A stretch of 64,000 bases of DNA, from NCBI GenBank assembly GCA_963788655.1, contig CAWBHS010000072.1:32001-96000 (forward strand), in the 5' to 3' direction. Source of the stretch: an uncultured Verrucomicrobiae bacterium (lineage in GTDB: Bacteria; Verrucomicrobiota; Verrucomicrobiia; Limisphaerales; JAFGQR01). Numbering within the stretch: position 1 is the first letter of the stretch; the number at the start of each line of letters is the position of its first letter. Made by a program: the position numbers and the translations under genes. The notes beneath the pieces were generated by a model that was not told where the DNA came from, ran no database searches, and was given only the letters and a program-made list of their open reading frames with translations. This document shows, one piece after another, positions 10,519 to 46,120 of this stretch.

Positions 10519-13500
10519 TTACGGGATTGCCTTCTTCAAGCGGTAGTATTTCTGCGGAGCGTCAATGGGGATGACCACTTGATACTCGGTACCGGAAACA
10601 TTCAAAGTGGCAGTTGCGGGCGCCCAAACGATGGGAGGGCTCAAGCTCGAGCTTTCTTCCAGCAGATATTCATTGCACGGGATGGCCCAACTCAGGACGA
10701 CATCGGTGTCTGTCCGACTCACGCTCAATACCGGCGCCGGTTCATCGACCACCACCGTGAAGTTGCAATGGCCCACGTTGCCGCTGACATCGGTGGCGGT
10801 GCAATCAACGACCGTGATGCCGATCGGGAACGCCGACCCGGAAGCGGGCAAACACACCACAGTGGGATCGGGATCACAATTGTCGAAGAAGACCGGTGGC
10901 GGGTAATTGACAATGGCGCTGCACTGGCCCGGATCCTTGTCCACTTCGATGGTCGTACTGCACTGGCAGGTTTCGATTTCCAAGGCGAGGTAATCGACAT
11001 CCGTATCATTTTGGATGAGCACGTCGAGGGCGCCTTCCTGGCGGATTACTGGCAACAGATCAGTGTAACTCCCGTCGGCGTTCGGCAAATGCGACAGGTC
11101 GAGTTCGAATTCCAGGGTGGTTCCGGTTGTCCACTCCGTGCCCTCGAGCAAGCCCGGGACGGAGTCGTAATCTCCAAAGCGCCGGGCCCATTGTTCCGGT
11201 ACGGAGCGTTCCATTCGGTTGGCTGAACACCAGGCTGATGGCATCGTCCACCGATGGAGCGCTCGACGCCCGAACCTTGAGCAACAATCGCGCACTGGAA
11301 AGCTTCGCCGGCAGGCCCGCGAAGGTGTGCGCCAGCCATTGATCGGCTGTGGCGTCATCAAATCCTTTTACGACGGCCGTACCGTCCAGGTAGGTCAACA
11401 GGCTTGCGCGCGGGGACGCTGGCTCGGGGCCGACAAAATCGTCGATGTCTCCCGCCAACTCGAAGCTGGGAGCATCCATGCACACCGACGGGCCTTCGGT
11501 GTCGCTCACGGTCACGTTGAAGGTACAATCCACCGCGTTGCCGCTGGAGTCCGTGGCGGTGCAGGTGACAGGCGTGGTGCCCTGGTCGAAACTGGACCCA
11601 CTGGGGGGCACGCAAACTACGATAACGCCCGGGCAATTGTCATTGGCCGTGACGTTGAAGGTCACGGTGGCCGAACATTCACCTGGATCGTTGCCCACGG
11701 TCAGATCGCCGGGACAACTGATGGCGGGTAGTTCCCCGTCATTGACCGTCACGTCGAACGTGCAACTCGACACATTGTTCGCTTCATCGGTGGCGGTGCA
11801 AGTCACACTGGTGACACCCTGAGGCAGGGTGGAGCCTTCCGGCGGGACGCACTCAATCGTCACTGTGCCGCAAGCGTCCACGGCGGTCACGCCGTAGGCC
11901 ACGTTGCTCTTATCGCACTGACCCGGATCAGTGGTGAACACCAGATTGGCGGGACAGGTCATCTCGGGTTTAGTCGTATCCACTACCGTCAATGTGGCCG
12001 TCTCACTGGTAACACTGCCGGCCTCGTTCGTGATGACCACCGCGTACCCGCCGCCATCGGCTGGATGAACGTCCGTCAAGGTCAACGTTTCCCCATCGGC
12101 TCCTGGGATCGGGGTGGCGCCGAAGAACCATTGATACGCCAGGCCTTCACCCGCCGCGGTCACGGTAAGCGTTGCCTCGCTGCCGCATTCGACGGTGGTG
12201 TCCTGCGGTTGGCCGGTGATTTCCGGTGGCACGCCGACTTCACCGCACATGCGGAGACTCCAACTCTGCAGGATGCCGGTGTCGCCGGCCTGGAGATCGG
12301 CCACAACAAGGGTCCAATCCCCATTGGGATCGAGGCCCTGGAAAGCAGCCAACAGCGCAGTGCGCGGATCCGTGTTTTGTGCGGCACTGGGATCAACGTC
12401 GCGGCCATCGGGAGCCCAGATGCCCGTCAATGGCCCTGTCAACGGTGTGTCGTTGTCGTCAAAGAGCGTCAAGCGATAGATGTGGACATCGCCCTGGGAC
12501 GCATCGTCGGCCAGGGTCACGTCAAATCCATTATCGCCGTAGCCCAGCAGATCGAACGAATCGTCCATACCCCGGCCCACGCGGTTCAACAACACCGCGT
12601 AACCCGATTCGTGAACCAGGAAGGCATAGAGATCACCGTTCCAACTGTGCGAAATGCGCAACGTCACTGCAAGGTCGGTCAGGGCGTTAATGTCCGTGGT
12701 GATGGTCATCGTATTGGTCAAACCATCGGGATTGTTGTCCGGGATGGGCAGGTTGACGGTTTGCGCGAAGCTGATTGGTTCGACGGTGACCTCAAACATG
12801 CAGGAACTGCTGTTGCCGCAATCGTCCGTCGCGGTGCAAGTCACGCTCGTTGTCCCGATTGGGAAGGCCGATCCGCTGGGCGGCACGCACTCCACGGTTA
12901 CGGTGCCGCAAGCGTCCGCAGCGGTGGGGGTGAATTCCACTGCCTGTTCGCAGGCTCCGTTGGCGCTGGTAACCGTGAGGCTGGCCGGACAGGTGATGGT
13001 CGGTGGCGTTGAATCCGTCACCGTGATCGTTTGGTCGCAGGTTCCCGTATTGCCGCAGTCGTCCGTCGCGGTCCAGGTGCGCGTGATGATCTGGGCGGAA
13101 GGACAAACGCCGGGAGTAGTAACATCCGTGAAGCTCACCGTGACGCTGGGATCACACCCATCCACCGCGCTCCCGTCACCGGTGGCGGAAGGATCAGTCG
13201 GCTCACCGCATTCCACGGTGACGTTCGCCGGACAAGTCACCACTGGCGCGGCCGTGTCGGCGACGGTAATGATTTGATCGCAACTGCTGGCATTGCCGCA
13301 CGCATCGGTGGCGGTCCAAGTGCGGGTAATCACCTGGCCTTGCGGGCAACTCCCTGCCGCGATGGCGTCGCTGAAACTGACGCCGGGATTGGCATCGCAA
13401 TTATCCGTCGCCGTTCCGGTCCCGGTAGCGCTCGGATCGGTCGGCGAATTGCACTCCACGGTGACATCCGCCGGGCAACTAACCACTGGCGGAGTCATAT

Positions 13501-16500
13501 CCGTCAATGTGATCACTTGATCGCAACTGCTGCTGTTGCCGCACGCGTCGGTGGCGGTCCAGGTGCGCGTGATAACCTGCGCCTGGGCGCACGAACCTGG
13601 CGCGGCCGCGTCGGTAAACGTGAGGGTGGGATTGGGATCACAAACATCGGTGGAGTTGGCCGTTCCGGTGGCGTCCGGATTGGTCAACTCGTCGCATTCC
13701 ACGGTGACGTCGTCCGGACAACTCACCACCGGCGGAGTCGTGTCGGCGACGGTAATCAATTGGGCGCAACTGCTGGTGTTGCCGCAGGCGTCAGTGGCCG
13801 ACCACGTGCGGGTAATGATTTGTTCTTGGGCGCACGTTCCCGGCGCGACTGCGTCAGTGAACGCAATAGTTGGATTCTCATCGCACGGATCGGTCGCGTC
13901 GGCCATCCCGGTGGCACTGGGATCGGTGGCCTCATCGCATTCGACCACAACATCCAAGGGACAAACCAAAGCCGGCCCAGTGGTGTCGGTCACGGTAACG
14001 ATCTGGCTGCACTGCGATGCGTTGCCGCAAGGATCGACGGCTTCCCAAGTGCGCGTGGCGGTGAAGGTCTGGCCGCAGGCGCCCACGGCGTTCGTTTCGG
14101 TGTTTATCACCGTCACCAACACATTGGTGCGCGCTGCGTCGATGCGCGCCGCGAAATCGACTGACACCAGGGGATTCGTTTTCAATTCCCAATCAGTGCC
14201 CGTCAACTGCCAGAAGTCCGGATAGTTTTGCCCGACGACCGCCGGCGAATACAAATCCAACCCGGCCGAATCGTTGGCCGCCAAGCCATCGAATTGCACG
14301 GTCCACGTAAAGGATTCCGGCAGGTCGCCCACCAGGGGCATCACGGCGTCAATTTGGAAATCCTCAATCGTGACGGTCGAGCGATCCGTCGCCGGCACGG
14401 CAAACGGGCCACTGTCATAAATCATGGTCCCCGGGGTGGGATACCCGTTGAAGTCCGCGCCGTCATTGCGATAGAAGCGTACCCGGGCGGTCACCTCACC
14501 TGCAAACGTGGCCTGCTCGCTGTTCAAGCCCCAGTATTCGAAGACGAAACGGGTGACCTGGCGGGACGTGCCTTCCAGAATGATTTCATCGCCCACCTCA
14601 GTGGTCCCGATGTCGAAACGATAGCGCAGGTCATTTTGCGAATTGTCGTACACCAACGAGTCAAACACGCATTCATCGCTGTAAACCGGCGCGTCAAATT
14701 TCCAGGCCATGCCGCATTCGACCGTCTTTTCGCCGGCACACTCGATCATCGGCGCTGTGGTGTCTTGCACGGTGACTTCCTGAGTGCATTCGACGGTGTT
14801 CCCGCAGCCATCGGAAATTTCCCACAAGCGGGTGGCCATGAACGTGTCGCCGCAGGCTCCGTTGACGTTGGTTGTGGTACTGAGCGCGGTAATGATGACG
14901 GTACCGCAGGTATCCGTGGCGACCGGCAAATCAAAGTCCCAGGATTCGCCACATTCGACGGTCTTGGCTGGCGCGCAGGTTACCTCCGGTGGCGTGGTGT
15001 CGATCAAGGTGATGATCTGCTCGCAACTGCTGGCATTGCCGCAGGCATCCGTCGCGGTCCAGGTGCGGGTAATGATGGGGGTCTGCGGGCACGATCCCGA
15101 GGCGGCGGCGTCGATGAAGGTGATGACCGGGGCGATGTCACAGGTGTCGGTCGCCGTGGCCATCCCGATGTCGCCGGGCTCGCGAGGTTGATCGCACTCC
15201 AGCGTTACGTCCGCCGGGCAGGTAACGGACGGGGCGACGGTATCCTGCACGGTTACCGTTTGGCTGCACTGGGAAATGTTGCCGCAGTCATCGATTGCTT
15301 CCCAAGTGCGGACGGCTTCATAGGTGGAACCGCAAGTCATATTGGTTACTGTGCCGACCAGACTGATCGTGGCCGGTCCGCAATGGTCCATGGCCGTGGG
15401 TTCCTCGAAGTCCCAGGCAGCCGTACATTCCACTGATTTGTCCGCCGGGCAGGTGAGCGCGGGCGGGGTGGTATCGGCCTTCACGAGCTTCTGGGAACAG
15501 GAGATCGCGTTGCCGCCCAGATCCGCAGCGGTCCAGGTGCGGATGGTGACCGTGGGGCACGTGCTGTTGTCCGTGGTATCGAAGTTGAAGGCGGTAGAGA
15601 TTCCGTTGGTCCCGATTACAAGGTAATCAGCATTGCCATCAAATCCGTTCCAGACCCCCGCGCCGCCGCCGGCGACCAATCGCACACCGCCGCCACTCAA
15701 ACCGTTGACGATCTGAGCGTCCGGGAAGGAACTGATGTACGTGGCCAGCGCTTTCACCCCGGCGCCGGGATACATGATTTCGGGATGGTTCAAGGACCAC
15801 CAACCGCCGGCGCGCGCATCCCAGCGTTGCCAGGCGCCCGTGAGGGTGGCTCCCTGGAGCGGCAGTCCAGGATTGCTGCCGTTCTGGTAACGAGGCTCGA
15901 AATAAAGCACGTCGTCACCGGAGCCGTTACCATCGGTGTCGATATTCAAAATGATATAAATCTCCCGGTTCAAACCCGCGCCGTCCGTGGTGCGATAGGT
16001 TGAATAGGACAGTTCAGTCAATGCCGACAATGCCACTTGGTCATACAAATAGTTGCGCATTTCAGCCAGGTTTTCCCCGTTCGCGCCAACCGAAGCATGG
16101 AAGCTGCCGGTGCCAAGGGGCGGTGTGCCCGGCCCCGCGGACATTTCCGCTGAGGCAGTGACGGGAAAACCTTGGACCACAAAAATCCAACCATCCAAGT
16201 CGGTGGGCGTTACGGCCAATGGTGCTGCGTCCGTGTAAGTCAGGACCGGCGCTGGATCGCAGGTATCGGTGGCCGTGGCCGAACCACCGGTGTTGACCGG
16301 AGTTAGCGGAGTGTCGCACTCGACCGTGATGTCCGCTGGGCAGAAGGTGATTTGCGGCGGCTCGCGATCGAAGACTGTCACCGTGAAACTGCAACTGCCG
16401 GATAAAGCCCCCGCGTCAGTCGCCGAGCAGTTGACGGTGATGGCCCCGTTGGCGAACACCGAACCACTGGGCGGATTGCACACGACTGCAGAGACACCGG

Positions 16501-19500
16501 GACAATTGTCCGTGGCGGAGACCGTGAAGTTGACCACGCGGTCGCATTGACCTTCCGGAGCGCGAACTACCATGTCCGCCGGGCAATTGACTACGGGCGG
16601 CTCAGTATCTTCGACCGTTACCGTGAAGCTGCAACTCGCCGTCAGTCCCCCGGCGTCGGTGGCCACACAGTTCACTGCAGTTACCCCTTTCTCAAAAGCG
16701 AAGCCGCTGGGTGGCGTGCAAATAACGCCAACGCCCGGGCAATTGTCGGTGGCCGGCGCATCGAAGTTCACCACGGCCGAACATTGGCCGGCATCGGTGC
16801 TGACTGTGAGGTCAGTCGGACACGTAATGACCGGGGCTTCGGCGTCATCCACCGTAATGGTAAAGCTGCAAGAACCGGTATTGCCGGCGGCATCAGTGGC
16901 GGTGCAGGTGACGGGGTTTTCTCCCTTGGAAAACGCCGAGCCACTGGGCGGTACACACCCGACCGTTACGTCCGGACAATTATCCGTTGCGGTGGCAGCA
17001 AAGGTCACTACCGCCGAGCACTCGCCAGGATCGGTGTTCACCGCGATGTCCGCCGGACAGGTGACCACGGGCGCCTCAGTATCATTCACGGTGACGTTGA
17101 AACTGCAAGACGTGGTGTTGTTGGCGGCATCCGTGGCGGTGCAATTGAGCGTCGTGGTTCCTTTCGCAAAGACGGATCCGCTGGCGGGCGTGCATGCGAC
17201 GGTGGGGCTACCGCAATTGTCGGTGGCGGTTGCAATGAAGCTGACGACTGCGGAGCACACCCCGGGATCGGTATTGACCGTCATGTCGCCGGGGCAGGTG
17301 AACGTCGGCGCCGTGGTGTCTTCGGCGGTTACCGTGGCGGTGCAGGTGGCCGTGTTGCCGGCGGCATCGGTCGCGGTCAACGTCACAACTGTGGCCCCCA
17401 AGCCGACCATCGTTCCGGCGGCTGGGCTTTGCATTACAGCTACGCTTCCCGGGCAGTTGTCGGCCGTCAGCACGTCGCCGGTCAGGTCCGGCAAAGCAAC
17501 GTCACAACTTGATCCTACCGAAAGCGTGCGGTCCGGGGCGCAAGTCGTGATCGAGGGTGGGGTCGTGTCTTCCGCCGTGACGTTGACGGTACACGTGGAG
17601 ACGTTGCCGGCCACATCGGTTGCGGACATGGTCACAACCGTGGTGCCCAATCCCACGGACGTGGCCGGGGCTGGGCTTTGGCTCACGGTGACTGCGCCGC
17701 CGCAGTTGTCCGTGGCCACTACTTCGCCCACCAAGTCGAGTAAAGAGACATCGCAATTCGCGCCAACGCTGATCGTGCGGTCGGTTGGGCAGGTGCCAAT
17801 GATCGGTGGCGTAGTGTCGTCCAGGGTGATGGCTTGTTCGCAGTCCACCGAGTTCGCGCAGTCATCCACCAGCGTGTAGGTCCGCGTCACAACGCCGTTG
17901 CCAGAGGGCAGGGGACTATCCAGGTGAGATACCGTTGCCGGCGTCGAAGAAGCGGCGCCCCCCGCCAGCGCAAACGACTCGAGGCTGGTTGCGGCAAGAG
18001 GAATTTCGGAGGCACATTGCACGGTGGTGGGCGCCGGACAAGTGATGGCAAGGGTGGGTTGCGAGGCATGCACCGCGGACAATCCGGCGTCATCGGTGTC
18101 GTCCAACAACACGTCCTCAATGTGGGCTCCCGGGCCTCCGGCGCCAAAGGTGTTGTTCTGCGCCAGGACAATGGCGCCGGCGGCGGGATTGCTATTCTCG
18201 ATGGCCCAGGGCGCCATGTTGTCAAAGCCGTAACCGCTCAAATTATTTCCGCCGTTACTGGCTCCCAGTCCGGTCACGTCGCTGGCGCTACAATCGCCGG
18301 CGTCCACCGTCGCGCCACCGGTAACGGCGAGTCCCGCCTGCGTATTGCCGGTCAGATCGTTGTCCTGCAATCGCACTTGACTGACGTCCGTCGCGCCCAA
18401 ACCAGCTTGCACGCCGATGGTATTCCCGGTGAAGACATTGTTCTGCGAGATGTCGGCAGTCGAGGCAGGAGCGGAAGCGGAACTGACGAGAACACCCGCG
18501 GAAATGGTTCCATCGACTGAAGAAACGCCTTGATTGCCGGTAATTTGGTTACCCAATTGTACGACGACGGACGCACCGGTTTCCACTTCTACGGCAAAGT
18601 CCAGCCAGTCACCCGCGCCTTTACCGGTGTAAGTGTTGTTTTCGAAAATTGCCGCCGTGTCAGCGCCGGAAAGTTGCAATCCGGCTCGGCCGATGTTGTC
18701 GAACGCGCAATTGCTGACCTCGACTTCGCCGCAGCCACCCAGCGCGTGAATCGCCACGCCGGAATAATCCGGGGCGGCGATCTGGGTGAAATAGACTCCG
18801 GCGATTTGCCCGGTGCCGTGGTGGCGAATGGCTTCGTAAATCTGGTGGCCATTGCCGTCCAAAGTGACATCGAACAATTCGAAATTATGGCACGATTCCA
18901 CCACCCACCACCCACGAGCATCGCCCGGAGCGGTGGTGTCGCCACCCGCTTGCAGGATGGTGTTGTTGACGCCCTGGCCGGACACAGTCACATCTTTGTT
19001 CACCACGATCTGGGGGCCTTCCACCAGCGTGATCGCATCCACGTTTACGGTGCCACCGGCGGTGATTGCGTCGATGCCGCGTTGGATACTGCCGCTGTTC
19101 TGGGTGACATAAACGTTGTCCGCCACGTAAAAGACAGGACCGCTTCCCCCGACATCAAGCGCGTGGAAAATGCCATCTTCAATTTGGTAGTTGTCGGTAA
19201 CGTCCGTGGCGTCCTGTTGCCAGGTGTTGCCGAGCGCCATAACGGTATCAGGGCTGGTGTTGTTGATAAAACTGCCGTCGCCACTCACCCGGATGGTGTT
19301 GCCCCCGGGACTGCTGGCCGTGCCCAGGTCCACGGTGCCGCTCGTGATCTGGATGGCGGTTTGATCGAAGTTGGCGGACTCGATGATCGTGCAGTCGCGA
19401 AGTCGCAGGAAACCGCCCGTCACCAGAATACTCGGATCGTCGGTCCCCGTGACGAAGGTAAACCCAGTAAACGTATTCGATCCCGAAGTGTAAACCAACG

Positions 19501-19873
19501 CCGGGGAATGTCCCTGAACGATTACCCCCGCGTCGTTGGCGACCAAATCGAGGTTCTTGCCAATGCGCACGCCGCGATAGAAGCCGGGGGCCACTTCAAT
19601 CCGGTCGCCTGGCCGGGCCGCATCAATGGCTTCCTGCAGGGTGGCAAAGGCATTCTGTCCCAGCACCACCCCGGGCTGTACTTCGGCGCCGCGGGCGATG
19701 GGCAGCCAAGCTTGGTTCACGGTTCGCTTGATGTGTCCCGGGAGAACGGTTTCGCGTGCGGTTTGCCCCTGCAAAATGCCTGCCGACCAAACCACCAAGA
19801 GAAAACCGACCACTGGAATGAATAGTCTAAAAACGGGAGCAGGACTTGTTGATGAGAGCAGCAACTTCTTCAT
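10519..19873 (-). CDS. Giant (~3,100 aa) secreted protein: N-terminal beta-helix, about 20 Cys-rich HYR-like repeats, P-proprotein domain, Ig domain, C-terminal 'YYRL' domain; one apparent frameshift near 11205
   Basis: ORF 11060-19930 plus the continuation ORF ending at 10519. Signal-like N-terminus and repeated DTTPP..TCPADVTVEC...ATDxC...TWTATDxCGN.S.C.Q.ITV units. IPDNN...HSWNGDL...GDWTL...DTG.L.SWSL marks the P domain. Confidence 0.85.
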
Positions 19874-20420
19874 AAAAATACGACTAAAATTTGACCAAAC
19901 ATCACCCAGCCGCATCCGTGCAATCCCCACGACTCTAGGGGAGAAGAGGGCATCCTTGGAATCTCTTCACGAAAGGGACATAACCATCCCTGCTGGAGGA
20001 ATGGTATCGCTATCATTGAATCGCGTTACCTCTAACAGGCAACCGCCCGTTTAGCAAGCAAAAAGTTCTTCGGACTGAGACAGATGAGGGAGTTCCAAAG
20101 TCGATTTGGACGGGCCGTGAAATGGACGACTCGACTAAGGCGGAGGGGTATCCTGGCCAGGAACTTGGGACCGGGTCGGTGTCGGGTGTGCAGTGCCTTG
20201 AAGACGCGGACCACCTGCTCGTTTCCTTCTGTCGTGTTTCTCATCTTCCAGTGGGTGGCCTGGCAGGTGGTGCTGTGGAATCCCGCCGAATCCACAGAAC
20301 GCTCGGCCAGCACGCTCGGATGCCCATGGCGGCCCCCACACTGTTATCCACCATTCATTTCTATAATTCCTGAGTTGCTTTCGGATGGCCCCTTACCGTA
20401 GCGTCGTCGGAGTTTTGGCC

Positions 20421-21988: not shown

Positions 21989-23094
21989 ATGAAGCTTAGC
22001 GAATTTATCGCGCCAACTTCGGAAGCCGCCCGCCGGGAGGGTCCGCACAACCGGATTGTCCTTTCCAGTCGGGTCCGTCTGGCCCGCAATCTAAAAGCAA
22101 GCCGTTTCCGGGATGGGCCAAGAAAGCGGAGCGCGTCAAGTCGTGGGACCTGATTCGGCCGGCGGTCGAATCACTGCCGCAAATGACCGGCGCTTTCGCG
22201 GAGTCCATGGACAAGTTGACGCCGCTGGACAAGCAAATCCTGGTGGAGCGCCATTTGATCAGCCGCGAGCACGCCGCCAAGAGCGCGGGCAGCGGGCTGG
22301 TGCTGAACCGGGAGGAAACGCTTTGCGTGATGATCAACGAGGAAGACCACCTGCGCATGCAGGCGTTGCGTCCGGGCCTGCAACTCAGCAGGCGTGGAAG
22401 GTCATTGACGAGGTGGATTCCAACTGGAGAAGAAGCTGGAGTATGCGTTCAGTCCCGAGTTCGGCTACCTGACCGCCTGCCCGACCAACTTGGGCACCGG
22501 CATCCGCGTCAGCGCCATGCTGCATCTGCCGGGCTTGGTGCTGGCCGAGCAGATCAACCCGATCATCCAGTCCGTCAACAAGCTTGGCCTGGCGGTGCGC
22601 GGGCTTTACGGCGAAGGCACCGAGGCGCTGGGTAATGTCTTTCAGGTGTCCAACCAGATGACACTGGGCGAATCGGAGTCGGACATCGTGGAGCGGCTCG
22701 ACAAGGTGCTGCCGCAAATCATCGAGCACGAGGAAAATGCCCGGGCCACGCTGCTGGAGAAGAAGCCCAAGATGGTCTACAACCATATCGGACGCGCCTA
22801 CGGCATTCTGGCCAACGCGCACAGCATTTCCTCGAAGGAAACCATGAACCTGCTGTCGTTGATGCGGCTGGGGGTGGACTTGGAGTTGTTCGGCATTGGA
22901 GCGGTGGGCGGTGGACGAGTTATTCATTTTGACGCAACCCGCCCACCTCCAACGAACTTTAGCGGAGAAACTTGGGCCGAGGAACGCGACTTGCTGCGTG
23001 CCGACATGCTGCGCGAGCGGCTGCGCGACATGACCGCCCGTCATCCAAGCCTACCGGTCGGAGTACGACCTCCGAAAAGAAGGCTTCCAGTTAA
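21989..23094 (+). CDS. mcsB: Protein arginine kinase; several apparent indels, 3' end approximate
   Basis: IVLSSRVRLARNL, LVERHLIS, MINEEDHLRMQ, GYLTACPTNLGTG.R.S.MLHLPGL, FQVSNQ.TLG, ERDLLRAD, spread over different frames. Confidence 0.88.
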
Positions 23095-23400
23095 CGGGCC
23101 AGGGCATAAACCCGAACTCCCAACGGGATTGCGCGCTGGCTGCGAGTGGAAGTTGGAACAGTTTTATGGGAGTCGGCATTGGGTTTTCTTTCGGATTTCG
23201 GGCTTTCTGACTTCGGATGTTGAAATTCTGGCATCAAAGATGTTTGCCGATCTAGGGGATTTCTGGTAATTACTGTTATGTCGCATTCCAGCAACGCCGA
23301 GAGCGAGCTAGCGGTGGGATGGGAATGCGCCGGGCAAGTCGGAAGCTCTGGCTGGGAACCGCTGGACAAAACAGGCAACAATGGCATTTATTAAATAGGT

Positions 23401-25910
<2,510 letters not shown>

Positions 25911-26177: not shown

Positions 26178-26193
26178 TGGCAAACCCGCTGCT
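26178..26193 (+). promoter_or_regulatory. sigma54 promoter of the minor-pilin cassette
   Basis: TGGCAAACCCGCTGCT (GG-N10-GC), 34 nt before ATG 26228. Confidence 0.6.
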
Positions 26194-26227: not shown

Positions 26228-26695
26228 ATGAAAATGAAGTTATCACTCTCAGCCAGTTCGCAGCGCCGCCGGCAGGCGGGCTTCTCCCTGGTCGAAGTCA
26301 CAGTGGGCATGGGCCTGTTGGCCACCGTAATGGGCGCCTTGTTTTCCAGCTTTACCTCCGGCTTTTTCACCGTGCAGTTGGCGCGCGAAAACCTCCGGGC
26401 CACCCAAATCCTGCTCGAGAAAGTCGAAACCATCCGCCTGTATAGCTGGGACCAGATCAATACGCCCGGCTTTATTCCCGCCACCTTCACGGCGCCCTAC
26501 GATCCCAATTCGACCAATGGCGGGCTCACCTACACGGGGACGATGACAATCAGTGACGCACCAATTTCCTCGTCCTATTCCAACGAGATGAAACAATTCA
26601 CCGTCCAGTTGAACTGGAAAACCGGCAAACTGGATCGCGCTCGCGAATTCACCACGTATGTCGCCCGCAATGGCCTGCAAACTTACATCTACTAG
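26228..26695 (+). CDS. Prepilin-type (class III signal) minor pilin, PilV/GspI-like
   Basis: RRRQAG|FSLVEV followed by a hydrophobic helix. Confidence 0.8.
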   Translation: MKMKLSLSASSQRRRQAGFSLVEVTVGMGLLATVMGALFSSFTSGFFTVQLARENLRATQILLEKVETIRLYSWDQINTPGFIPATFTAPYDPNSTNGGLTYTGTMTISDAPISSSYSNEMKQFTVQLNWKTGKLDRAREFTTYVARNGLQTYIY

Positions 26696-27245
26696 GCGAC
26701 TGGCCCGCCCAACTCGCCGGACAGCGCCACCTTTCGGATTTGCGCTGGTCGAAATGATTTTTGCCATGGGCATCACCACCTTGCTGGTGTTGGTGGTGTG
26801 TTCCTTTGCCATTTACAGCAGCCGCAACTTCGCCGTGCTCGCCAATTACGTGGAATTGGACGACGCCAACCGGTTGGCCATCGACCACATGACTCAGGAT
26901 TTGCGCCAGGCCCGGCGACTGGTCAGTGCCTCCGCCACCACCCTGACGCTGGAGGACAGCGACGGATTCACGATCCAATACGCGTTCAATCCGAACACCC
27001 ACATCCTGAGCCGGACCAAGGGAGGCATCACTCAGGTGATGCTCACCGAATGTGATACCTTGAATTTCGCGTTAGGACAACGCAACCCGGTCGGCGGTTC
27101 CTATGATATTTATCCGGCGGCCACTCCCGAGACGGCCAAAGTGGTGAACGTGTCTTGGGTTTGCTCGCGCAAGATTTTGGGCGTCCGATCCAATACCGAA
27201 AGTGTCCAAACCGCTCGCATTGTCATTCGCAAACAAGGTACATGA
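26670..27245 (+). CDS. Prepilin-type minor pilin, PilW/GspJ-like
   Basis: G|FALVEMIFAMGI; overlaps the preceding gene; start uncertain (26658 or 26670). Confidence 0.75.
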   Translation: MACKLTSTRRLARPTRRTAPPFGFALVEMIFAMGITTLLVLVVCSFAIYSSRNFAVLANYVELDDANRLAIDHMTQDLRQARRLVSASATTLTLEDSDGFTIQYAFNPNTHILSRTKGGITQVMLTECDTLNFALGQRNPVGGSYDIYPAATPETAKVVNVSWVCSRKILGVRSNTESVQTARIVIRKQGT

Positions 27246-27258
27246 AGCTGATGGTCGT

Positions 27259-28683
27259 ATGAAACTCCAACTCCCTTCTTCCCGTCGTTGTGCGGGTAAC
27301 ACTTTGCTGCTGACCCTGGTCATTGCCGCCGTGGTCGGCTTCATTCTCGTCGCCTACCTCAATTTGGTGCGGGCCCAACACATGGCTACCATGCGCTCGC
27401 AAGCCTGGAACGTGGCGGTGCCGGTGATCGAAGCGGGCATCGAGGATGCCCTGGCCCACCTGAATGCGCATGCAGGCAGCAGTCTGGCCTGCGATGGATG
27501 GCACAGTGCCGGTAGCTATTACTGGTTGTATCGCCACGTGGGCGATCATTTCTATATTGTCACCATTTCGAACTATTTCGTTGGGATTACGACGAATGCT
27601 CCGGTGATCGAATCCCGGGGTTACGTGAGCATGCCCACGCTGGTTGCCTCCGCGTCGTCAGGTCCCCTGCTGGCCTCGACGACCATGGCCATGACTTACA
27701 AAAACTATCTGGGACGCGGAGTGCGGGTGCGGACGCGGCAGGATGCGCTGTTTGCCAAGGGGTTGGTGGCCCGTGACACGATTGACATGAACGGCAATAA
27801 CATCGAAGCGGATAGTTTTGATTCCACGGACGCTAATTACAGCACCAGCGGCCAGTATGACTCCACCAAGCACAAAGATAAGGGTGACGTGGCCACCAAT
27901 TCCAGCCTGACCAACTCGTTGAACGTTGGCAACGCGGACATCTTTGGACACGTGGCGACGGGCCCCAACGGCAGCGTGGCGATTGGGCCGCAGGGTTCTG
28001 TGGGCGACATGTCCTGGCACGCGGCCAACCGTCGCGGGATCAAACCCGGCTTTTACAACGATGACATGAATGTGAATTTTCCCGATGTTGAAACTCCGTT
28101 CAACGGCGGCTTTTCCCTCAACGGCGGCTACGTCACGAATGCCGATGGTTCCACGACCTATTACGATCAAATTCTGGAGGACGGCAACTATCAGACAGTG
28201 AACCTTTCCGGCACCACTTACGTGCGTGGGCAGGCGAAGCTGCTGGTGACGGGAGGCATTTCCATGTCGGGACACGACGAAATCGTCATACCCGAAGGCA
28301 AAACTTTGAAACTGTATATGGCGGGAACCTCCGCCAGTCTCGGCGGCAATGGGGTGATGAATTCCGATGGCTACGCGACAAACTTTTTTTATTACGGTTT
28401 GCCCGAGAACACTTCTTTGAGCCTCAGCGGCAACGGTGCATTTGTGGGCACGGTGTACGCTCCCAATGCCGCCTTGACACTCAACGGCGGCGGCCACAAT
28501 AAGACGGATTTCGTCGGCGCGGCCATTACCAAAACCGCGCGGCTCAACGGCCATTTTAGCTTCCATTACGATGAAGCCCTGAAGACGTACGGCCCAGTGC
28601 GCAGTTATGTGATTACCGATTGGGATGAAATGACCCCGGATGAAGTCGGCGCTACGGTCATCTCCATCCCGGTTTTTAATTGA
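27259..28683 (+). CDS. PilX/GspK-like minor pilin with a large C-terminal beta-rich (adhesin-like) domain
   Basis: RRCAG|NTLLLTL without E5, A..IEAGIEDAL; C-terminal GTVYAPNA.LTLNG...FVGA...FHYDEAL; third gene of the cassette. Confidence 0.72.
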   Translation: MKLQLPSSRRCAGNTLLLTLVIAAVVGFILVAYLNLVRAQHMATMRSQAWNVAVPVIEAGIEDALAHLNAHAGSSLACDGWHSAGSYYWLYRHVGDHFYIVTISNYFVGITTNAPVIESRGYVSMPTLVASASSGPLLASTTMAMTYKNYLGRGVRVRTRQDALFAKGLVARDTIDMNGNNIEADSFDSTDANYSTSGQYDSTKHKDKGDVATNSSLTNSLNVGNADIFGHVATGPNGSVAIGPQGSVGDMSWHAANRRGIKPGFYNDDMNVNFPDVETPFNGGFSLNGGYVTNADGSTTYYDQILEDGNYQTVNLSGTTYVRGQAKLLVTGGISMSGHDEIVIPEGKTLKLYMAGTSASLGGNGVMNSDGYATNFFYYGLPENTSLSLSGNGAFVGTVYAPNAALTLNGGGHNKTDFVGAAITKTARLNGHFSFHYDEALKTYGPVRSYVITDWDEMTPDEVGATVISIPVFN

Positions 28684-31987: not shown

Positions 31988-32170
31988 TTATGCCCAGAGT
32001 TGGGGCTTGGGAATTCGCCGATCCTTGATCCTTGGCAATTGACCATTTCCTTCCAAAGTGTCGCCAGCAACTGCCACTACGTTGCAATCAAACATCCCAG
32101 AGAATTCCCGGTTGACCGTTCGAGTAATCCGGCTGTCTGCGTTTCCGCCGGTGGAACATCGGCCGCACGT

Positions 32171-40541: not shown

Positions 40542-40557
40542 TGGCACCAACGCTGCT
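40542..40557 (+). promoter_or_regulatory. sigma54 promoter of the major pilin gene
   Basis: TGGCACCAACGCTGCT (GG-N10-GC), 110 nt upstream of the pilin ATG. Confidence 0.7.
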
Positions 40558-40667
40558 AAAAGCCCGATATGCGGCCGGTAAAAGGCAATGAGTGAACGAC
40601 CCGCAGCACAAATAAATAACCGCCTTTTACCTTCGTTCACACCGCAAGAGAGAAAGGTAAACGCAGT

Positions 40668-41019
40668 ATGAGAATAAACACCTCCCGCAAGGCCGGCTTC
40701 ACGCTGGTAGAAATCATGATCGTCGTGGCCATCATCGGCTTGTTGGCCGCCATCGCCATCCCCAACTTCGTCAAGGCGCGCACCGCCAGTCAGAAAAGCG
40801 CGTGCATCGCCAATTTGAAACAAATCGAAGGGGCCAAGGCGACCTGGGCATTGGAAGAAAAGAAGAGCAATACGGACACCCCGGGCGACAGCGCTCTGTT
40901 TGGTTCGACTTTGTATATTCGCACCAAACCCTCGTGCCCCGGCGGCGGCAGCTACACGATCGGCCAAGTGGACGCCAAGCCCACTCTGTTCGCTTTCGGA
41001 TCACGTTTTGCCCAACTAG
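40668..41019 (+). CDS. Type IV major pilin-like protein; a one-base insertion near 40986 masks the C-terminal Cys
   Basis: RKAG|FTLVEIMIVVAIIGLLAAIAIPNF. Removing one base gives ...CPGGGSY...PTCSLSDHVLPN* and restores a disulfide pair. Confidence 0.85.
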
Positions 41020-41050
41020 CCGAAGCTAAATCATAATCCTTTTGGATTCC

Positions 41051-41090
41051 AAGCAGGCTTGAGGAGTTCCTCAAGCCTGTTTTGCTTTGG
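41051..41090 (+). terminator. Intrinsic terminator of the pilin gene
   Basis: AGCAGGCTTGAGG-agtt-CCTCAAGCCTGTT followed by a T-rich tract. Confidence 0.75.
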
Positions 41091-41302
41091 TTGTTTGGTT
41101 TGGTTTGAATTGATTCCTTTTACGCCAGCGGTTCGGGAACCGTCGAACTCCTGGTGGCCACCCGGAGGTTCATTGGCAGGTTGGCTGACCACCGCCGGTG
41201 GATGACTTGGATCGGTCCCGTAGTCGGATTCTCTGCTCCGGAGCAGCATCGGCCACGTAATTGTGGCCGCAACGCAAGCCGCTCTTTTCAGCCGTCTTCT
41301 AA

Positions 41303-41574
41303 GAGCCTGTTTTAAGATTCGGCGTGGTCCTGTTTTCGCGGAAAAGGCCGGCTGGCGAGGCGCGACGAACGAGCATACCCGCAGCGGTCTGTAAGCGAGG
41401 AGCAACGAAGCCAGCCGGCCTTTTCCGCGAAAACCCGCAGGGCGGCGGGTCTTTTGAACGTGGGCTTCGTTGGCTCGATCCTTACAGCCCACTGCGGGGA
41501 TGCGCGGACCTCGTCGCCTCGCCCGCGTCCAAAATCCCTCGCCGCAGGACCTCGCCCAATTTTAAAACAGGCTC
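41303..41574. mobile_element. 272-bp non-autonomous MITE (IS5-like ends) with a TAA target duplication
   Basis: 30-bp terminal IRs matching at 27/30 (GAGCCTGTTTTAA...). TAA on both flanks (41300-41302 and 41575-41577). Internal perfect 25-bp IR at 41332-41356 and 41410-41434. Confidence 0.85.
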
Positions 41575-41768
41575 TAAGTAACGATTGTGTAGGGCAGGCG
41601 TCCCGCCGGTCCCGAACAAGTGCAAGCCAACAACTTGTATCACGGCACCGTGAGTCTTCCTAGGTCACCCAAGGGTGAGGATTCCTTGGGTTATCCGTGA
41701 CAGGCGAGACGCCTGTCCTACCATGCCGAACTGCCTCCTCGCCGCACCAGCCACTGAATGGATACGGC
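41575..41768 (-). mobile_element. 194-bp MITE/REPIN-like element, copy 3 (inverted, one end degenerate)
   Basis: Reverse complement of the 31794 element; abuts the 272-bp MITE. Confidence 0.8.
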
Positions 41769-41849
41769 TTAAGCCGGTCATCACCCCGGAAAATTGAGGG
41801 AATCTTAAAAAAATCTTGCTTCTGTTCGCCTTCCGCCTGCTAAATCGGA

Positions 41850-43277
41850 ATGACGATGCCGATAGAAAAAATCATTGTTCTCGAGGACGATCTGGTAGTT
41901 CGAAAGAATCTGGAGCAACAATTGCGTTATCGCCGCTATGACGTGGCGGCGGTGAACACGATTGCGGCGGCGCAGGAGCTTTTGACTAAGGACAATTTTG
42001 ACCTGATGATCGTGGACATTCGTCTGCCGGATGGTGACGGACGCGCGTTGCTCAAGCAATTGCAGTCCCGGCCGAGCAAACCCCTGGTCGTCATGATCTC
42101 CGGTTTTGGCACGGTGGACGTAGCCGTGGAGTGCATGAGCAACGGGGCCTTCACTTTCCTGACCAAGCCGTTTTCCCCCGAGCAACTCGCCGTCACCCTT
42201 AAGAAGGCGGAGGAACACACCCAACTGGTCAAGGTCAGCCATTTCCTGAGCCACGCGGAAGATGAGGAATCGGGCTATGAATTGCTGGGCAACAGCCAAC
42301 AGATCGAGACTTTGCGGCAATTAATCCGCAAAGTCGCCCGGACGCATGCCACCGTGTTGATCCAGGGCGAGAGCGGTACCGGCAAGGAATTGGTTGCCCG
42401 CGCCCTCTTTCGCGAAAGCCCCCGCGCCAATGCCCCGTTTATCAAGGTCAACTGTGCGGCGATTCCGGAAAACCTCATCGAAAGTGAATTCTTCGGTCAC
42501 GAAAAAGGGGCCTTTACCGGCGCGCTGACCAAACGCGAAGGCCGTTTTGAACTGGCGCACGGGGGGACCATTTTGCTGGACGAGATCAGTGAGATTTCCC
42601 CCACGGTGCAGGCCAAACTGTTGCGGGTGCTTCAGGAGCGGGAATTCGAGCGGGTCGGAGGCAATCGCACGATCAAAGTCAATGTGCGGGTCATTGCAAC
42701 GACCAACCGGCACTTGGCCGAGAGCGTCGAACGCAAGGAATTCCGGCAGGATCTGTTCTTCCGGTTGAATGTGGTGCCCATCTACATTTCCCCGTTGCGG
42801 GACCACAAACAGGACGTGGCGTTGCTGGCCGAACAATTTCGCGTCCGCTTCGCCCGCAAGCATGGCATCGAAGTCAAAGCGATTTCTGACGTTTGCATGA
42901 ATGCGCTGATGAACCATTCCTGGCCGGGCAACGTGCGGGAACTCCAGAACGTCATTGAACGGGGAGTGATCCTCTGTGGCGAGCGCGGTATCCTGGAACC
43001 AGTGCATCTGGGATTGGCGCAACGTCCCGATGCGGCGCAGGCCATGATCAGTCCGTCCGCGGCCGCAACAGTTCCGCCCTCGGCGAGCGCGGCCGGGGAT
43101 TTCTACACATTGAGCGAAGTGGAGAAGCAGCACATCCTGGCCGCCCTGGAACGCAGCAAAGGCAATCGGACCCACGCGGCCAAAATGCTCTCGATCAGCA
43201 TTCGGACCTTGCGAAACAAGCTCAACGAATACAACTTCAAACATTCGGAAGGCGCTTCCTCGCGCGACGCGGCTTAA
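41850..43277 (+). CDS. sigma54-dependent response regulator (REC-AAA+-Fis HTH; NtrC/AtoC/FlgR type)
   Basis: Receiver DIRLPDGDG, GESGTGKE, GAFTGA, LLDEI, WPGNVRELQN, GNRTHAA.ML.IS.RTL. Confidence 0.93.
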   Translation: MTMPIEKIIVLEDDLVVRKNLEQQLRYRRYDVAAVNTIAAAQELLTKDNFDLMIVDIRLPDGDGRALLKQLQSRPSKPLVVMISGFGTVDVAVECMSNGAFTFLTKPFSPEQLAVTLKKAEEHTQLVKVSHFLSHAEDEESGYELLGNSQQIETLRQLIRKVARTHATVLIQGESGTGKELVARALFRESPRANAPFIKVNCAAIPENLIESEFFGHEKGAFTGALTKREGRFELAHGGTILLDEISEISPTVQAKLLRVLQEREFERVGGNRTIKVNVRVIATTNRHLAESVERKEFRQDLFFRLNVVPIYISPLRDHKQDVALLAEQFRVRFARKHGIEVKAISDVCMNALMNHSWPGNVRELQNVIERGVILCGERGILEPVHLGLAQRPDAAQAMISPSAAATVPPSASAAGDFYTLSEVEKQHILAALERSKGNRTHAAKMLSISIRTLRNKLNEYNFKHSEGASSRDAA

Positions 43278-43504
43278 TCCGGGAAATCTATAAACGTTCC
43301 TGTGGGTCGAGGGCTACGCCGTGGTCAACGACTACTCGCTCGGGGAATGTGCTCCTGAGCCAGGTTGAGGATACTGGAGCACCCCTCCGCAGACGCCACG
43401 TCAGAGTAACCGCGTCGCTGCCGTTTTCACCTGCTGGTGCTTGAGCACACACCGGCTGTTTCCGGCCCTCTCACTCCGATCTTCGGCCGGCACGTATGAC
43501 GGCC

Positions 43505-43545
43505 CATCCGGCATCCGGCATCTGGTATCCGGCATCCGGCATCCC
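43505..43545. repeat. Heptamer tandem repeat (CATCCGG) x ~6
   Basis: catccgg catccgg catctgg tatccgg catccgg catccc; a degenerate copy lies at 60053-60085. Confidence 0.75.
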
Positions 43546-43804
43546 GCTCCCCCACTGTCCCGATCGGACACTCAAATCCATCGTTGTCCAAGCGTGCCAC
43601 ACGATGGAACCAGCACTGTCCTGCAAATGGATGTGCGAATCACGGTTTGTCTTGATTTAAGACATCAACACCTGGGCTTCTGTCGATGGTGATCTCGTTT
43701 AAGACAATATTAATAATTGAGTGTCGGGGCTGGGACACCGTTTTCGTTCAATACTCATGGGTTTTCGCCTCTGATTCCGTCCTATCCAAGCCAGGTCCGG
43801 TTGA

Positions 43805-43820
43805 TGGCAGACCAACTGCT
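43805..43820 (+). promoter_or_regulatory. sigma54 promoter of fliA
   Basis: TGGCAGACCAACTGCT (GG-N10-GC), about 220 nt upstream of the fliA ATG. Confidence 0.6.
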
Positions 43821-44037
43821 AAAAGAAGGCTGCGGTCGGAACATTCAAATCAAATGAAACGGAACCACCAGCATATTGCGCCCCAGGCCGAAAGGACTTC
43901 GAAACGGAACAGAATGGATGCCTGTTCCCGCTTCGTTCGCCAGGTGCGTGTTTGGTTCAATCCTGAGTTGGCAGAAATTGCTCCGCGCCGTTTAACCTCC
44001 CAGCCCTCGTTTAATTCCACTTACCCCCTGCATCCAC

Positions 44038-44859
44038 ATGATCTCTGATTCCCGCGTTAGTGTGCGTCGTCCCTCCACCCGGCCCAAAGCCGTCCGGAAA
44101 AACAATTCGTCCTGGCCGCGTCAGCGGCGCATCCGGCCCGGCAGTGCGATCGAAACCGAGTTGGTCGAAAAATACATCCCGCTCGTAAAGAGTGTCGTGG
44201 CCCGGCTGGCGATGGGCCTGCCGCCCCACGTGGACGGGGAGGATTTGTTCAGCGCCGGCCTTCACGGCTTGTTGAATGCCATCCGCAATTACAATCCCAC
44301 CGCCGGGACTTCGTTCGAAACGTACGCGCGCTTGCGCATTCGTGGCGCGGTCTTTGATGAACTGCGCCGCATGGATTGGGTACCGCGTTCGGTCCATTCC
44401 AAAGCCCGTAAGTTGCAGCAAGTCATGGCCGAACTCGAACAGCGCAAAGGCCGCGCGCCTACGGATGCGGAGATGGCCAAGGCACTGAACATTTCCGTTA
44501 AGGAATACGGCGACTGGCTCGAAGAAACGCGCCCGGCCACGTTTGTCTGCCTGGACGCCGCCTTCAACAGCGAGTACGATGACACGGTCAGTCAGCACGA
44601 AAGCCTGGCTGACCCCCGCCAGGAAAATCCGTTGGACGGCGCCTTTCGCCACGAGGTTTCCGAGTTAATCGCCGAACGCTTGAAGCAACTCCCCGAAATG
44701 CAACGCAAAGTTCTCGCGCTGTATTATTTTGAAGATCTGCGCCTGCGCGAAATTGCCGAAGCGTTCGGCCTGACCGAATCTCGGATTTGTCAGATCCATG
44801 CCCAGGCCATTCTTGCCATCAAAACGTACCTGCGCAAATTCGATCCCTGTTTCGCCTGA
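44038..44859 (+). CDS. fliA: RNA polymerase sigma factor, FliA/WhiG (sigma28) family
   Basis: LVEKYIPLV, EDL.SAG..GL, FETYA..RIRGA..DELR..DWVPRSV, L.ESRICQIH.QA. Confidence 0.92.
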   Translation: MISDSRVSVRRPSTRPKAVRKNNSSWPRQRRIRPGSAIETELVEKYIPLVKSVVARLAMGLPPHVDGEDLFSAGLHGLLNAIRNYNPTAGTSFETYARLRIRGAVFDELRRMDWVPRSVHSKARKLQQVMAELEQRKGRAPTDAEMAKALNISVKEYGDWLEETRPATFVCLDAAFNSEYDDTVSQHESLADPRQENPLDGAFRHEVSELIAERLKQLPEMQRKVLALYYFEDLRLREIAEAFGLTESRICQIHAQAILAIKTYLRKFDPCFA

Positions 44860-45252
44860 CGCCGCAGGTCTCATTGAGCGTTGCAACCCACTCTTAGGAT
44901 TTCTTTGGCACAGGAAGGAACCATGATTACCCGGCCCCCGAAACGATCGCTTCCGCTTGCGGCGTTACCGCGCGGACGTTCACGTCGGGAAGGCTTCGTG
45001 CTACCTCCCATCAATGCATGCTGGCCAAACCAAGCGCAGCGAACAATGCGATGGCGGGCATCCCATTCAGTTACCTCGCGCCGTTCGTGCCGCGGATGCT
45101 CCCCCTTGCTGCCACATCAACCCGGTCACGCTGCAACGGGTCAACCGGTTTGGTCGCGCGGCGGCCATGCGGAGTTCCATGGGCAAGGTCAAAATTGCTG
45201 GTCACCTGTCGTCATCGCAGCAAATCCCTGCGAAATTGGAACTTATCGTTGC

Positions 45253-45268
45253 TGGCACATCCATTGCT
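45253..45268 (+). promoter_or_regulatory. sigma54 promoter of flgN-csrA
   Basis: TGGCACATCCATTGCT, a perfect TGGCAC-N5-TTGC consensus, 59 nt before ATG 45328. Confidence 0.75.
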
Positions 45269-45327
45269 TAACCCAAGTGGCGGCGAGGCAATGGTTGCAG
45301 CCGCCGCCATCGAAGACCGAATTGGTT

Positions 45328-45825
45328 ATGATCGCCATCCTGCAGAAATTCATTGATGCGCTCCGGAACGAGTTACAGCAATACGGAGAGATGCTGGCCC
45401 TGTTGGACCAGCAACATGAAATGGTGATGCACCGCGGCGGCGAAGAGATCCAACAATCGGTCGCCGCCGTCAACGCCCATCGTTCCCTCATTCAAACCGC
45501 GCGCGAACAGCGCCACCAACTCCAGCGCCAATTGGCCGCCCGCCTGGACCAACCGGACACGGCGACCTTTGCGCAAATCATTCCCTTGTTGCCCCAGCAG
45601 TACCGTCCCTTGGTCAAAGCCTTGGTCCAGGAAAACAATGAACTGCTGCATCGGGTCGAACAACGCGCGCAGCAGAACCAGATGTTGTTGCAACATTCGC
45701 TGGAACTGATGCGCGAATTCGTGGCCAGTTTGGCCAACACCGATTCCGGCCGCTCGTCCCGGCCCATCGGCAATTCCTCGCTCTCTGATCAACCCGGTTC
45801 CCTCGTCCCTGATGCTCTCGCTTAA
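45328..45825 (+). CDS. flgN: FlgN-like export chaperone
   Basis: 165-aa helical protein L..ELQQY.EML.LL.QQ...L...V.Q....NQ.LL..SL, located between fliA and csrA. Confidence 0.65.
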   Translation: MIAILQKFIDALRNELQQYGEMLALLDQQHEMVMHRGGEEIQQSVAAVNAHRSLIQTAREQRHQLQRQLAARLDQPDTATFAQIIPLLPQQYRPLVKALVQENNELLHRVEQRAQQNQMLLQHSLELMREFVASLANTDSGRSSRPIGNSSLSDQPGSLVPDALA

Positions 45826-45844
45826 CCACGGAACCGAGATCAAC

Positions 45845-46120
45845 ATGCTAATCCTCTCACGTAAAATTAACGAAAGCATCGTCATCGATGGCAAGATCAT
45901 CATCAAGATCCTGCGCATTGAAAAAGACACCGTCAAACTGGGCATCCAGGCCCCGCCTGAAGTCAGCGTCCACCGTCAGGAAATTCAGGACCTGATCGAG
46001 CGCGGCCACCAAAATGGTGCCAAAGCCAATCACGCCCCCGCGTCCCGCGCGAACGCCGGCCCCAAAACGACAGAGTACGGAGTGCCCTCCTCGCGGGTCA
46101 CCCCCTCCGGTTCAGAATAG
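45845..46120 (+). CDS. csrA: Carbon storage regulator (RNA-binding translational regulator)
   Basis: MLILSRKINESIVID..I.IKIL......VKLGIQAP.EV.VHRQEI. Confidence 0.93.
   Translation: MLILSRKINESIVIDGKIIIKILRIEKDTVKLGIQAPPEVSVHRQEIQDLIERGHQNGAKANHAPASRANAGPKTTEYGVPSSRVTPSGSE

Follow-up and report, generated by a model that had tools for sequence, protein, structure and literature searches.

The 64,000-nucleotide stretch analysed here (the window; positions 32,001 to 96,000 of contig CAWBHS010000072.1 from an uncultured Verrucomicrobiae bacterium of the order Limisphaerales) carries five co-oriented plus-strand genes between positions 40668 and 46120, encoding a pilin-like protein, an NtrC-class sigma-54 activator (NtrC2), a second sigma-28 factor (FliA2), a second FlgN-family protein (FlgN2) and a second CsrA (CsrA2). 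With moderate confidence, we propose that a PilR-like activator co-regulates pilus genes together with this second sigma-28/FlgN/CsrA layer, and that the layer has outlived the flagellum. In what follows, G000 is the genome to which the window belongs, C-numbers denote contigs (C72 being that of the window) and L-numbers denote extracted loci.

A cassette of second-copy regulators

Profile matches bore out the cluster that a sequence-only reading of this DNA had described, namely a pilin-type gene, a GAFTGA activator, fliA, flgN and csrA, co-oriented between unrelated genes (Table 1). The upstream flank holds a membrane protein gene and a sulfatase-like gene on the minus strand, and downstream lie xseB, dxs and icd, all unrelated to the cassette. 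NtrC2 belongs to the NtrC class by its Response_reg (87.7 bits), Sigma54_activat (243 bits) and HTH_8 (59.5 bits) matches, and it has a Walker A sequence of GESGTGKE and the aligned receiver aspartate; GAFTGA, Walker A and this aspartate are conserved in its seven orthologs, with one GAFTNA variant. Its best NCBIfam matches are AtoC, NtrC and FlbD, all under cut-off, and PilR is not among the best 25 of 124 families. FliA2 is a member of the FliA/WhiG family (TIGR02479, 250.1 bits; cut-off 189.6) in which the Pfam regions r2, r3 and r4 are all matched. FlgN2 scores 51.1 bits against PF05130 (gathering score 30.5), which also matches its orthologs in L052, L056, L057, L058, L061 and L140; the ortholog in G001, a genome of the same genus, escapes the Pfam FlgN search and has 54% identity by tblastn. 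The flgN2 gene stands outside the usual flgK/flgL context, its next gene being csrA2 and not flgK. CsrA2 exceeds the cut-off of TIGR00202 (78.6 against 70.1 bits), its residues L2, L4, R6, V42, H43, R44 and E46 are invariant across ten cassette orthologs, and no fliW occurs in the window to make up a FliW-CsrA partner switch with it. In the window nothing passed the gathering thresholds of Rfam, CsrB-like RNAs included. A CACGGA element ~12 nt 5' of the csrA2 start (window 45821-45845) recurs near the starts of four flagellin genes (C76, C75 and C88); these elements are possible CsrA sites, or merely a local ribosome-binding pattern.

The prepilin N-terminus is the sole family match of the pilin-like protein (N_methyl, 33.4 bits; TIGR02532, 31.6 bits), and no pilin equivalog model comes anywhere near its cut-off. 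The gene had earlier been called a major pilin; the prepilin motif is present, which falls short of the qualifier 'major'. Paralogs are encoded on C93 (66%) and C88 (56%), and a higher contig depth in one RNA library gives a hint only that the window pilin is the main pilus subunit. In a scan of the 34 other window open reading frames (ORFs), neither fliW nor flgM nor any structural gene of the flagellum was found, as had been said of the locus before.

In G000, FliA/WhiG above cut-off (C72 and C55), FlgN (C72 and C107) and CsrA (C72 and C60) are each encoded twice, and canonical contexts are found for one copy of each, as flhA-flhF-fliA1-motAB, flgJ-flgN1-flgK-flgL and fliW-csrA1-flagellin. 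Judged by sequence, fliA2, flgN2 and csrA2 are paralogous second copies of these canonical genes. The closest paralog of NtrC2 (NtrC1; 52% identity; G000:C76:142132-143592, L145:4133-5596) lies amid flagellin, fliD, fliS and che genes; with glutamate at the phospho-acceptor aspartate position of its receiver and GAGTPG where NtrC2 has GAFTGA, this protein may fail to contact sigma-54. Searches in 12 other genomes gave no NtrC1 match above 57% identity and no clear ortholog, so that there is no ground for seeing in NtrC2 the paralog of a conserved flagellar activator.

Promoter elements shared by pilus genes and the cassette

The sigma-54 pattern TGGCA.-N5-[TC]TGC[AT] matched 63 times in the 8.96 Mb of G000, fewer than in an order-3 Markov simulation. 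Four matches fall in the window, all on the plus strand and all before co-oriented genes, where the density of the genome itself predicts ~0.45 per window and ~0.03 in the 4.7 kb that hold three of them; they are exactly the promoters that had been marked from the sequence alone at 26178, 40542, 43805 and 45253. Elsewhere in G000 the motif precedes glnB, two cheW genes, flgB, flgF, fliW, pilM and other pilin-like genes, and its presence before glnB, cheW, flgF and fliW indicates that the scan picks up credible sigma-54 targets. The form TGGCA[AG]-N5-[CG]TGCT is found 5' of fliA2 in all 12 orthologous loci with upstream sequence, and a second motif is found 5' of flgN2 in five of 12 by the strict pattern.

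The palindrome TGTC-N9-GACA, which is of the TGT-N11-ACA type, occurs at 85 sites in G000 and is no commoner there than control palindromes. Seven of these stand no more than 300 bp 5' of one of the 87 sigma-54-like motifs, compared with ~0.25 expected, at offsets of -157, -157, -165, -163, -157, -123 and -80. The genes behind them are the window pilin, fliA2, the minor-pilin cassette, the pilM-to-secretin operon, a second secretin and the flgB-to-fliF operon; one site has no ORF called. An exact palindrome precedes fliA2 in six of the 12 loci, over a background of 0.019 per 300 bp. When palindrome and motif were searched together in five of the flagellum-less genomes described below, six matches were returned and none in the reversed control: fliA2 of G001 and of G305, the G001 pilin ortholog, a pilin-like gene of G307, a pyrroloquinoline quinone (PQQ)-propeller protein gene of G001 and one site inside an ORF of G033. 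The G001 pilin ortholog, which is on a different contig from G001 fliA2, again has the palindrome at -157 plus a sigma-54 motif. At the level of cis-elements the link between the pilus genes and the cassette is real, and in this genus it consists of a common palindrome and a sigma-54 motif. About five CCGGCAT-like heptamers, noted by eye, lie at window 43497-43545, ~100-150 bp upstream of the fliA2 palindrome.

Conservation of the cassette and its retention without a flagellum

The comparison set comprised 40 relatives for FliA and 80 loci from a species-genome collection, with 13 cassette carriers, all Limisphaerales. FliA was matched in 24 of the 40 relatives. Eight of the 80 loci have activator-fliA2-flgN2-csrA2 or a visible part thereof, and most of the remainder are canonical flhF-fliA-motA loci with flgN1-flgK ~7 kb further on. 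The fliA2-flgN2-csrA2 trio is complete in 12 of the 13 carriers, the contig of the thirteenth stopping within fliA2, and among the 11 loci whose upstream sequence reaches far enough, 8 have the activator next to the trio; a convergent MFS transporter gene often lies 3' of csrA2. A Pfam FlgN census of 301 genomes of the order gave a match in 151; it misses G001 flgN2 and was not used for the cassette counts. The synteny comparison called for by the sequence-only reading came out divided, with activator-fliA2-flgN2-csrA2 conserved across genera and the pilin adjacency not. In three loci a hybrid histidine kinase gene (receiver, HisKA and HATPase domains) lies shortly 3' of the cassette, often beyond the MFS transporter gene (L052:4387-5775, L053:8418-9767 and L056:4059-5417), and is a candidate for the sensor of the activator.

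Cassette FliA separated from six canonical FliA with support of 97/97. In a tree of 110 rows, 12 cassette rows and nine rows from other contexts formed one clade (Shimodaira-Hasegawa-like approximate likelihood-ratio test, SH-aLRT, 93), which adjoins the canonical FliA of related families; the nine rows without FlgN or CsrA neighbours are L032, L060, L063, L065, L066, L074, L075, L110 and L031, the last being a contig end. The cassette is old and conserved as a unit.

FlhA, Flagellin_N and Flg_bbr_C (rod/hook/FlgK-type) were each found in the same seven of the 13 carriers, and profile searches found none of them in G001, G033, G302, G303, G305 and G307. The FliA of these six genomes is of the cassette type only, apart from a further FliA cassette in G302 and G303, and canonical fliA is gone. 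Loss of the flagellum requires four changes on the FliA2 tree (three to four across bootstraps, with at least two forced by strongly supported branches). For the flagellum-less pair G302 and G303, the ratio of nonsynonymous to synonymous divergence (dN/dS) is 0.027 for fliA2 (dS 0.29), 0.21 for flgN2 and 0.14 for csrA2. For this pair, the selection check suggested earlier points to purifying selection: canonical fliA was lost with the flagellum, and fliA2 remained under constraint. The CheA dimerisation domain occurs in five of the 13 carriers, with no pattern relative to flagella. The earlier idea that the regulators were kept and rewired survives in part, in that the cassette is intact in those six of the 13 carriers in which FlhA, flagellin and rod/hook proteins were not found, and shares cis-elements with pilus genes; it fails for the genome of the window, which is not flagellum-free.

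Related arrangements were seen in several of these genomes. A further compact cassette, fliA-flgN-fliW-csrA, is present on G302:C82 (L146), G303:C377 (L147) and, in a flagellated genome, G304:C215 (L148), with parts of it on G015:C12 (L152) and G308:C24 (L153). G302 and G303 have a FliW-CsrA pair without any flagellin found. G001:C184 (L143) retains fliW-csrA1 (64% and 87% identity; compare G000:C60:290300-292870), and the flagellin gene that follows csrA1 in G000 is missing from G001, with the flanks conserved.

Proposed mechanism and competing explanations

In our proposal, a flagellated member of the Limisphaerales carries at this locus a regulatory cassette driven by sigma-54. NtrC2, a putative PilR-like activator, would be phosphorylated by some kinase, bind TGTC-N9-GACA ~150 bp upstream and open the sigma-54 promoters of the pilin genes, the pilM-to-secretin operon, flgB and fliA2. 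FliA2 would add a pilus-linked input into sigma-28-type promoters, because its DNA-reading regions are the same as those of canonical sigma-28. CsrA2 would act as a translational repressor on target mRNAs, possibly with its own among them, and FlgN2 would serve as a partner of CsrA2 or as a chaperone. Since the cassette survives flagellar loss, its regulon would include a non-flagellar part, most likely surface- or pilus-related.

Several observations weigh against this proposal. The pilin adjoins the cassette in no other genus examined, the adjacency being limited to G000 and one close relative, and the window contains no histidine kinase beside NtrC2, as a PilR with an adjacent PilS would have. 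From adjacency only, we infer that NtrC2 is the palindrome binder among ~19 sigma-54 activators. No exact palindrome is present at the flgN2 promoter, and the other six of the 12 fliA2 loci have one-mismatch palindromes that are not clearly over background. NtrC2 orthologs (60-87% identity) occur in 19 of the 24 FliA-positive relatives and in two of the 16 FliA-negative ones, and PilM is present in 40 of 41 genomes; from this distribution the activator looks associated with flagellar lineages and not with pili in general. Completeness values are at hand for two of the six flagellum-less genomes (G001, 93%; G033, 83%), and dS is saturated (>1.1) for most of the other pairs compared.

The sigma-28 data weigh in the same direction. 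Regions 2.4 and 4.2 of FliA2 have a consensus identical to that of 79 canonical FliA, and the only three cassette-specific positions are all outside them, so that FliA2 can presumably drive flagellin promoters in G000 and may simply feed the flagellar regulon there. The sigma-28-type motif [CG]TGA[AG][CT]-N14-[AG]CCGAT, derived from the promoters of the four flagellin genes that it precedes, was searched in the six flagellum-less genomes and G000. It gave 30 matches in the six against five in the reversed control, and all but about three of the 30 loci returned (four of them from G000) lie inside a long ORF. The genome-wide motif scan that had been suggested thus produced matches above the control and no readable regulon. 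In the flagellum-less genomes none of the sites could be read as the sigma-28-type promoter of a non-flagellar gene, and a relaxed form of the motif revealed no conserved site within the 13 cassette loci.

Much of this would also fit a purely flagellar accessory role, in which a second sigma-28/chaperone/CsrA tier serves, for example, some of the five flagellins and is a slow-decaying leftover in flagellum-less relatives. We hold this to be unlikely, although it deserves serious weight. It agrees with the shared promoter-reading regions, with the co-occurrence of NtrC2 and FliA, with the absence of a non-flagellar sigma-28 target among the matches, with the palindrome and sigma-54 motif before the flgB operon and with the fliW-csrA1 pair that G001 retains without a neighbouring flagellin, from which regulators may decay late. 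However, in the flagellum-less holders the cassette is undamaged in all four genes, except for a split activator ORF in G302, and fliA2 evolves under strong constraint between two of them. Moreover, canonical fliA was lost each time and fliA2 retained across ~3-4 independent losses, and the flagellum-less FliA2 branches are not systematically longer.

A bolder reading, which we regard as improbable, is that FlgN2-CsrA2 and the FliA-FlgN-FliW-CsrA cassette of relatives form a flagellum-independent partner switch, the checkpoint logic of the flagellum having moved onto pili. A chaperone of flagellar ancestry would then sense the assembly or export state of some surface structure other than the flagellum. 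The best candidate is the type IV pilus, since its genes have control elements in common with the cassette. The chaperone would release or sequester CsrA2 and sigma-28, resetting expression.

The sequence-only reading had taken the organism to be flagellum-free, with a flagellar regulatory skeleton kept and rewired. The window indeed has no structural flagellar gene in its 64 kb, and FlgM (PF04316) was not found anywhere in G000; however, the whole-genome profile search that this reading itself had called for found a full flagellar set on C38, C55, C60, C76 and C107, together with fliA1, flgN1 and fliW-csrA1. The organism is therefore not flagellum-free and the window regulators are second copies, which leaves that reading very little probability. 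Equally remote is a binning artefact, in which cassette and flagellar contigs of two organisms were merged: although G000 is a metagenome bin of 115 contigs (86% complete, 5.6% contamination) that measures 8.96 Mb against 5.3 Mb for G001, and its cassette and flagellar genes never share a contig, C72, C55, C60, C75 and C76 are not set apart by their tetranucleotide profiles (correlation with the mean of G000, 0.997-0.998 for each), and around fliW-csrA1 the gene order of C60 is that of G001 save for the flagellin gene, both of which argue against an artefact, as do six other genomes that hold cassette and flagellar genes together and the far larger number of markers than 5.6% that a merger would duplicate.

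Further features of the window and the genome

Table 1. Features of the window (contig C72) and flagellar genes on other contigs of G000.
Feature	Contig	Coordinates	Strand	Remarks
Palindrome TGTCCCAAGACAAGACA (TGTC-N9-GACA)	C72	26013..26029	+	165 bp before minor-pilin sigma-54 motif
Sigma-54-type motif TGGCAAACCCGCTGCT	C72	26178..26193	+	minor-pilin cassette
Minor-pilin-like cassette	C72	26228..28683	+	prepilin-motif protein 26228-26692, 195-aa ORF, DUF7305 protein 27202-28683
Palindrome TGTCTCATAATTGGACA	C72	40385..40401	+	157 bp before pilin sigma-54 motif
Sigma-54-type motif TGGCACCAACGCTGCT	C72	40542..40557	+	110 nt 5' of pilin start
Pilin-like gene	C72	40668..41036	+	122 aa, prepilin N-methylation motif
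Terminator-like hairpin	C72	41051..41082	+	14 pairs and T-rich tail, 3' of pilin gene
Two dispersed repeat elements	C72	41299..41775	.	fill most of 725-bp stretch missing in close relative
NtrC-type sigma-54 activator (NtrC2)	C72	41850..43277	+	receiver, AAA+ with GAFTGA, Fis-type helix-turn-helix
Palindrome TGTCTTGATTTAAGACA	C72	43648..43664	+	157 bp before fliA2 sigma-54 motif
Sigma-54-type motif TGGCAGACCAACTGCT	C72	43805..43820	+	5' of fliA2
fliA2, second sigma-28 gene	C72	44038..44859	+	61% identity to fliA1 (C55)
Sigma-54-type motif TGGCACATCCATTGCT	C72	45253..45268	+	5' of flgN2-csrA2
flgN2, second FlgN-family gene	C72	45337..45825	+	48-51% identity to flgN1 (C107)
csrA2, second CsrA gene	C72	45845..46120	+	core 62% identity to csrA1 (C60), variable C-terminal tail
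Flagellar genes	C38			fliF, fliG, fliH, fliI, fliJ, flgD, flgE, fliL, fliM, fliP
Flagellar genes	C55			fliR, flhB, flhA, flhF, fliA1, motA, motB
Flagellar genes	C107			flgF, flgG, flgA, flgH, flgI, flgJ, flgN1, flgK, flgL
Flagellar genes	C76			two flagellins, fliD, fliS, che genes
fliW-csrA1-flagellin	C60			FliW is the single one of the genome
Additional flagellins	C75, C88			five flagellin genes in genome

The two repeats between the pilin and activator genes are dispersed in G000. The first (41299-41578) is a palindromic element of ~280 bp with 34-nt terminal inverted repeats and ~27-31 copies that are up to 97.5% alike, and the second (41578-41775) is ~195 bp long and has ~85-90 copies. One sediment metatranscriptome run contained contigs of a relative (~90-99% alike) over the pilin, the activator, fliA2, flgN2 and the flgN2-csrA2 junction. 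One of these joins 41088 to 41814 and skips the 725 bp of G000, showing that the pilin-activator adjacency exists in the relative. Such RNA-library contigs carry no start, strand or level information, DNA carry-over is possible and gaps are uninformative; they are a hint of transcription and fall short of proof.

Among the flagellar genes, flhA (G000:C55:20018-22056) and fliI (G000:C38:70937-72066) each lie in two reading frames. The window genes clpC, mcsB and amtB (~7856-8809 and 22113-25900) also appear split, and because housekeeping genes are affected in the same way, the split flhA and fliI probably reflect assembly indels and not decay. Between fliD and fliS, a 90-aa ORF (G000:C76:137160-137525; L144:19256-19525) has a sigma-28-like motif upstream, as four flagellin genes do. 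It matches no Pfam family and is possibly FlaG- or FlgM-like. Elsewhere in the window, a giant surface protein of 2956 aa with nine HYR domains, a beta-helix and immunoglobulin domains is encoded on the minus strand at 11060-19930.

Relation to known systems and significance

Retention of sigma-28 and sigma-54 regulators, non-flagellar roles of sigma-28 and cross-talk of PilR to flagellar regulators are documented. In Legionella, non-flagellated species keep FliA and FlgM (L. oakridgensis) or FliA, FleN and FleR/FleS (L. longbeachae) (PMC5655016). As there, a sigma-28 factor and a sigma-54-dependent activator survive the loss of flagellar structural genes in Limisphaerales, and the loss is not recent. 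Unlike the single canonical regulators retained in Legionella, the survivor here is a duplicate cassette that has coexisted with the canonical set in flagellated relatives; it includes FlgN and CsrA, FlgM was not found, and the phylum is different.

A study of P. aeruginosa (PMC6058289) gives the PilR sites as TGT-N11-AGA with nearby GTCT elements, shows control of fleSR by PilSR and includes a predicted PilR regulon for Geobacter. The window resembles that system in having an NtrC-type activator beside a pilin gene with a sigma-54 promoter and an upstream site of the TGT-N11-A.A type, and, if our proposal holds, in one activator that would reach both pilus and flagellar regulatory genes. It differs in that a PilS-type kinase is missing beside the activator, a second sigma-28 gene takes the place of fleSR as the flagellar-type target, and the NtrC2 orthologs follow flagellated lineages whereas PilM is in nearly all genomes.

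In Bacillus and Campylobacter, FliW, CsrA and flagellin form a partner switch. The cassette is similar in that a flagellar-type CsrA is encoded beside a gene of the flagellar chaperone class, and G000 also has the canonical fliW-csrA1-flagellin unit; in contrast, csrA2 follows flgN2 without an adjacent fliW, and the cassette persists without flagellin. Non-flagellated Chlamydia has sigma-28 together with CtcC. A sigma-28-family factor with a non-flagellar role is also known in WhiG of Streptomyces (PMC12871210). Like these two, the cassette provides a FliA/WhiG-family factor that would work in cells without flagella; in contrast, neither of those organisms is known to have more than one such factor or a FlgN/CsrA cassette, and WhiG is controlled by RsiG and cyclic di-GMP.

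A literature search found no paper on such a cassette or on flagellar regulation in Limisphaerales. What is new is that a duplicate cassette, present alongside the canonical regulators, is the part that survives, that it includes FlgN and CsrA (in some genomes also FliW) where the type III export apparatus or flagellin was not found, and that control elements are common to the cassette and pilus genes. The presence of flagellar regulators is usually taken to indicate motility, and here a tier of them is duplicated under the control elements of pilus genes. Its retention through several losses of the flagellum is a natural experiment on the re-use of checkpoint regulators, and it raises the question of what a FlgN-family chaperone does without type III export and what role is left to CsrA and FliW when flagellin is missing. 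For annotation, the presence of fliA, flgN and csrA in Verrucomicrobiota does not imply a flagellum.

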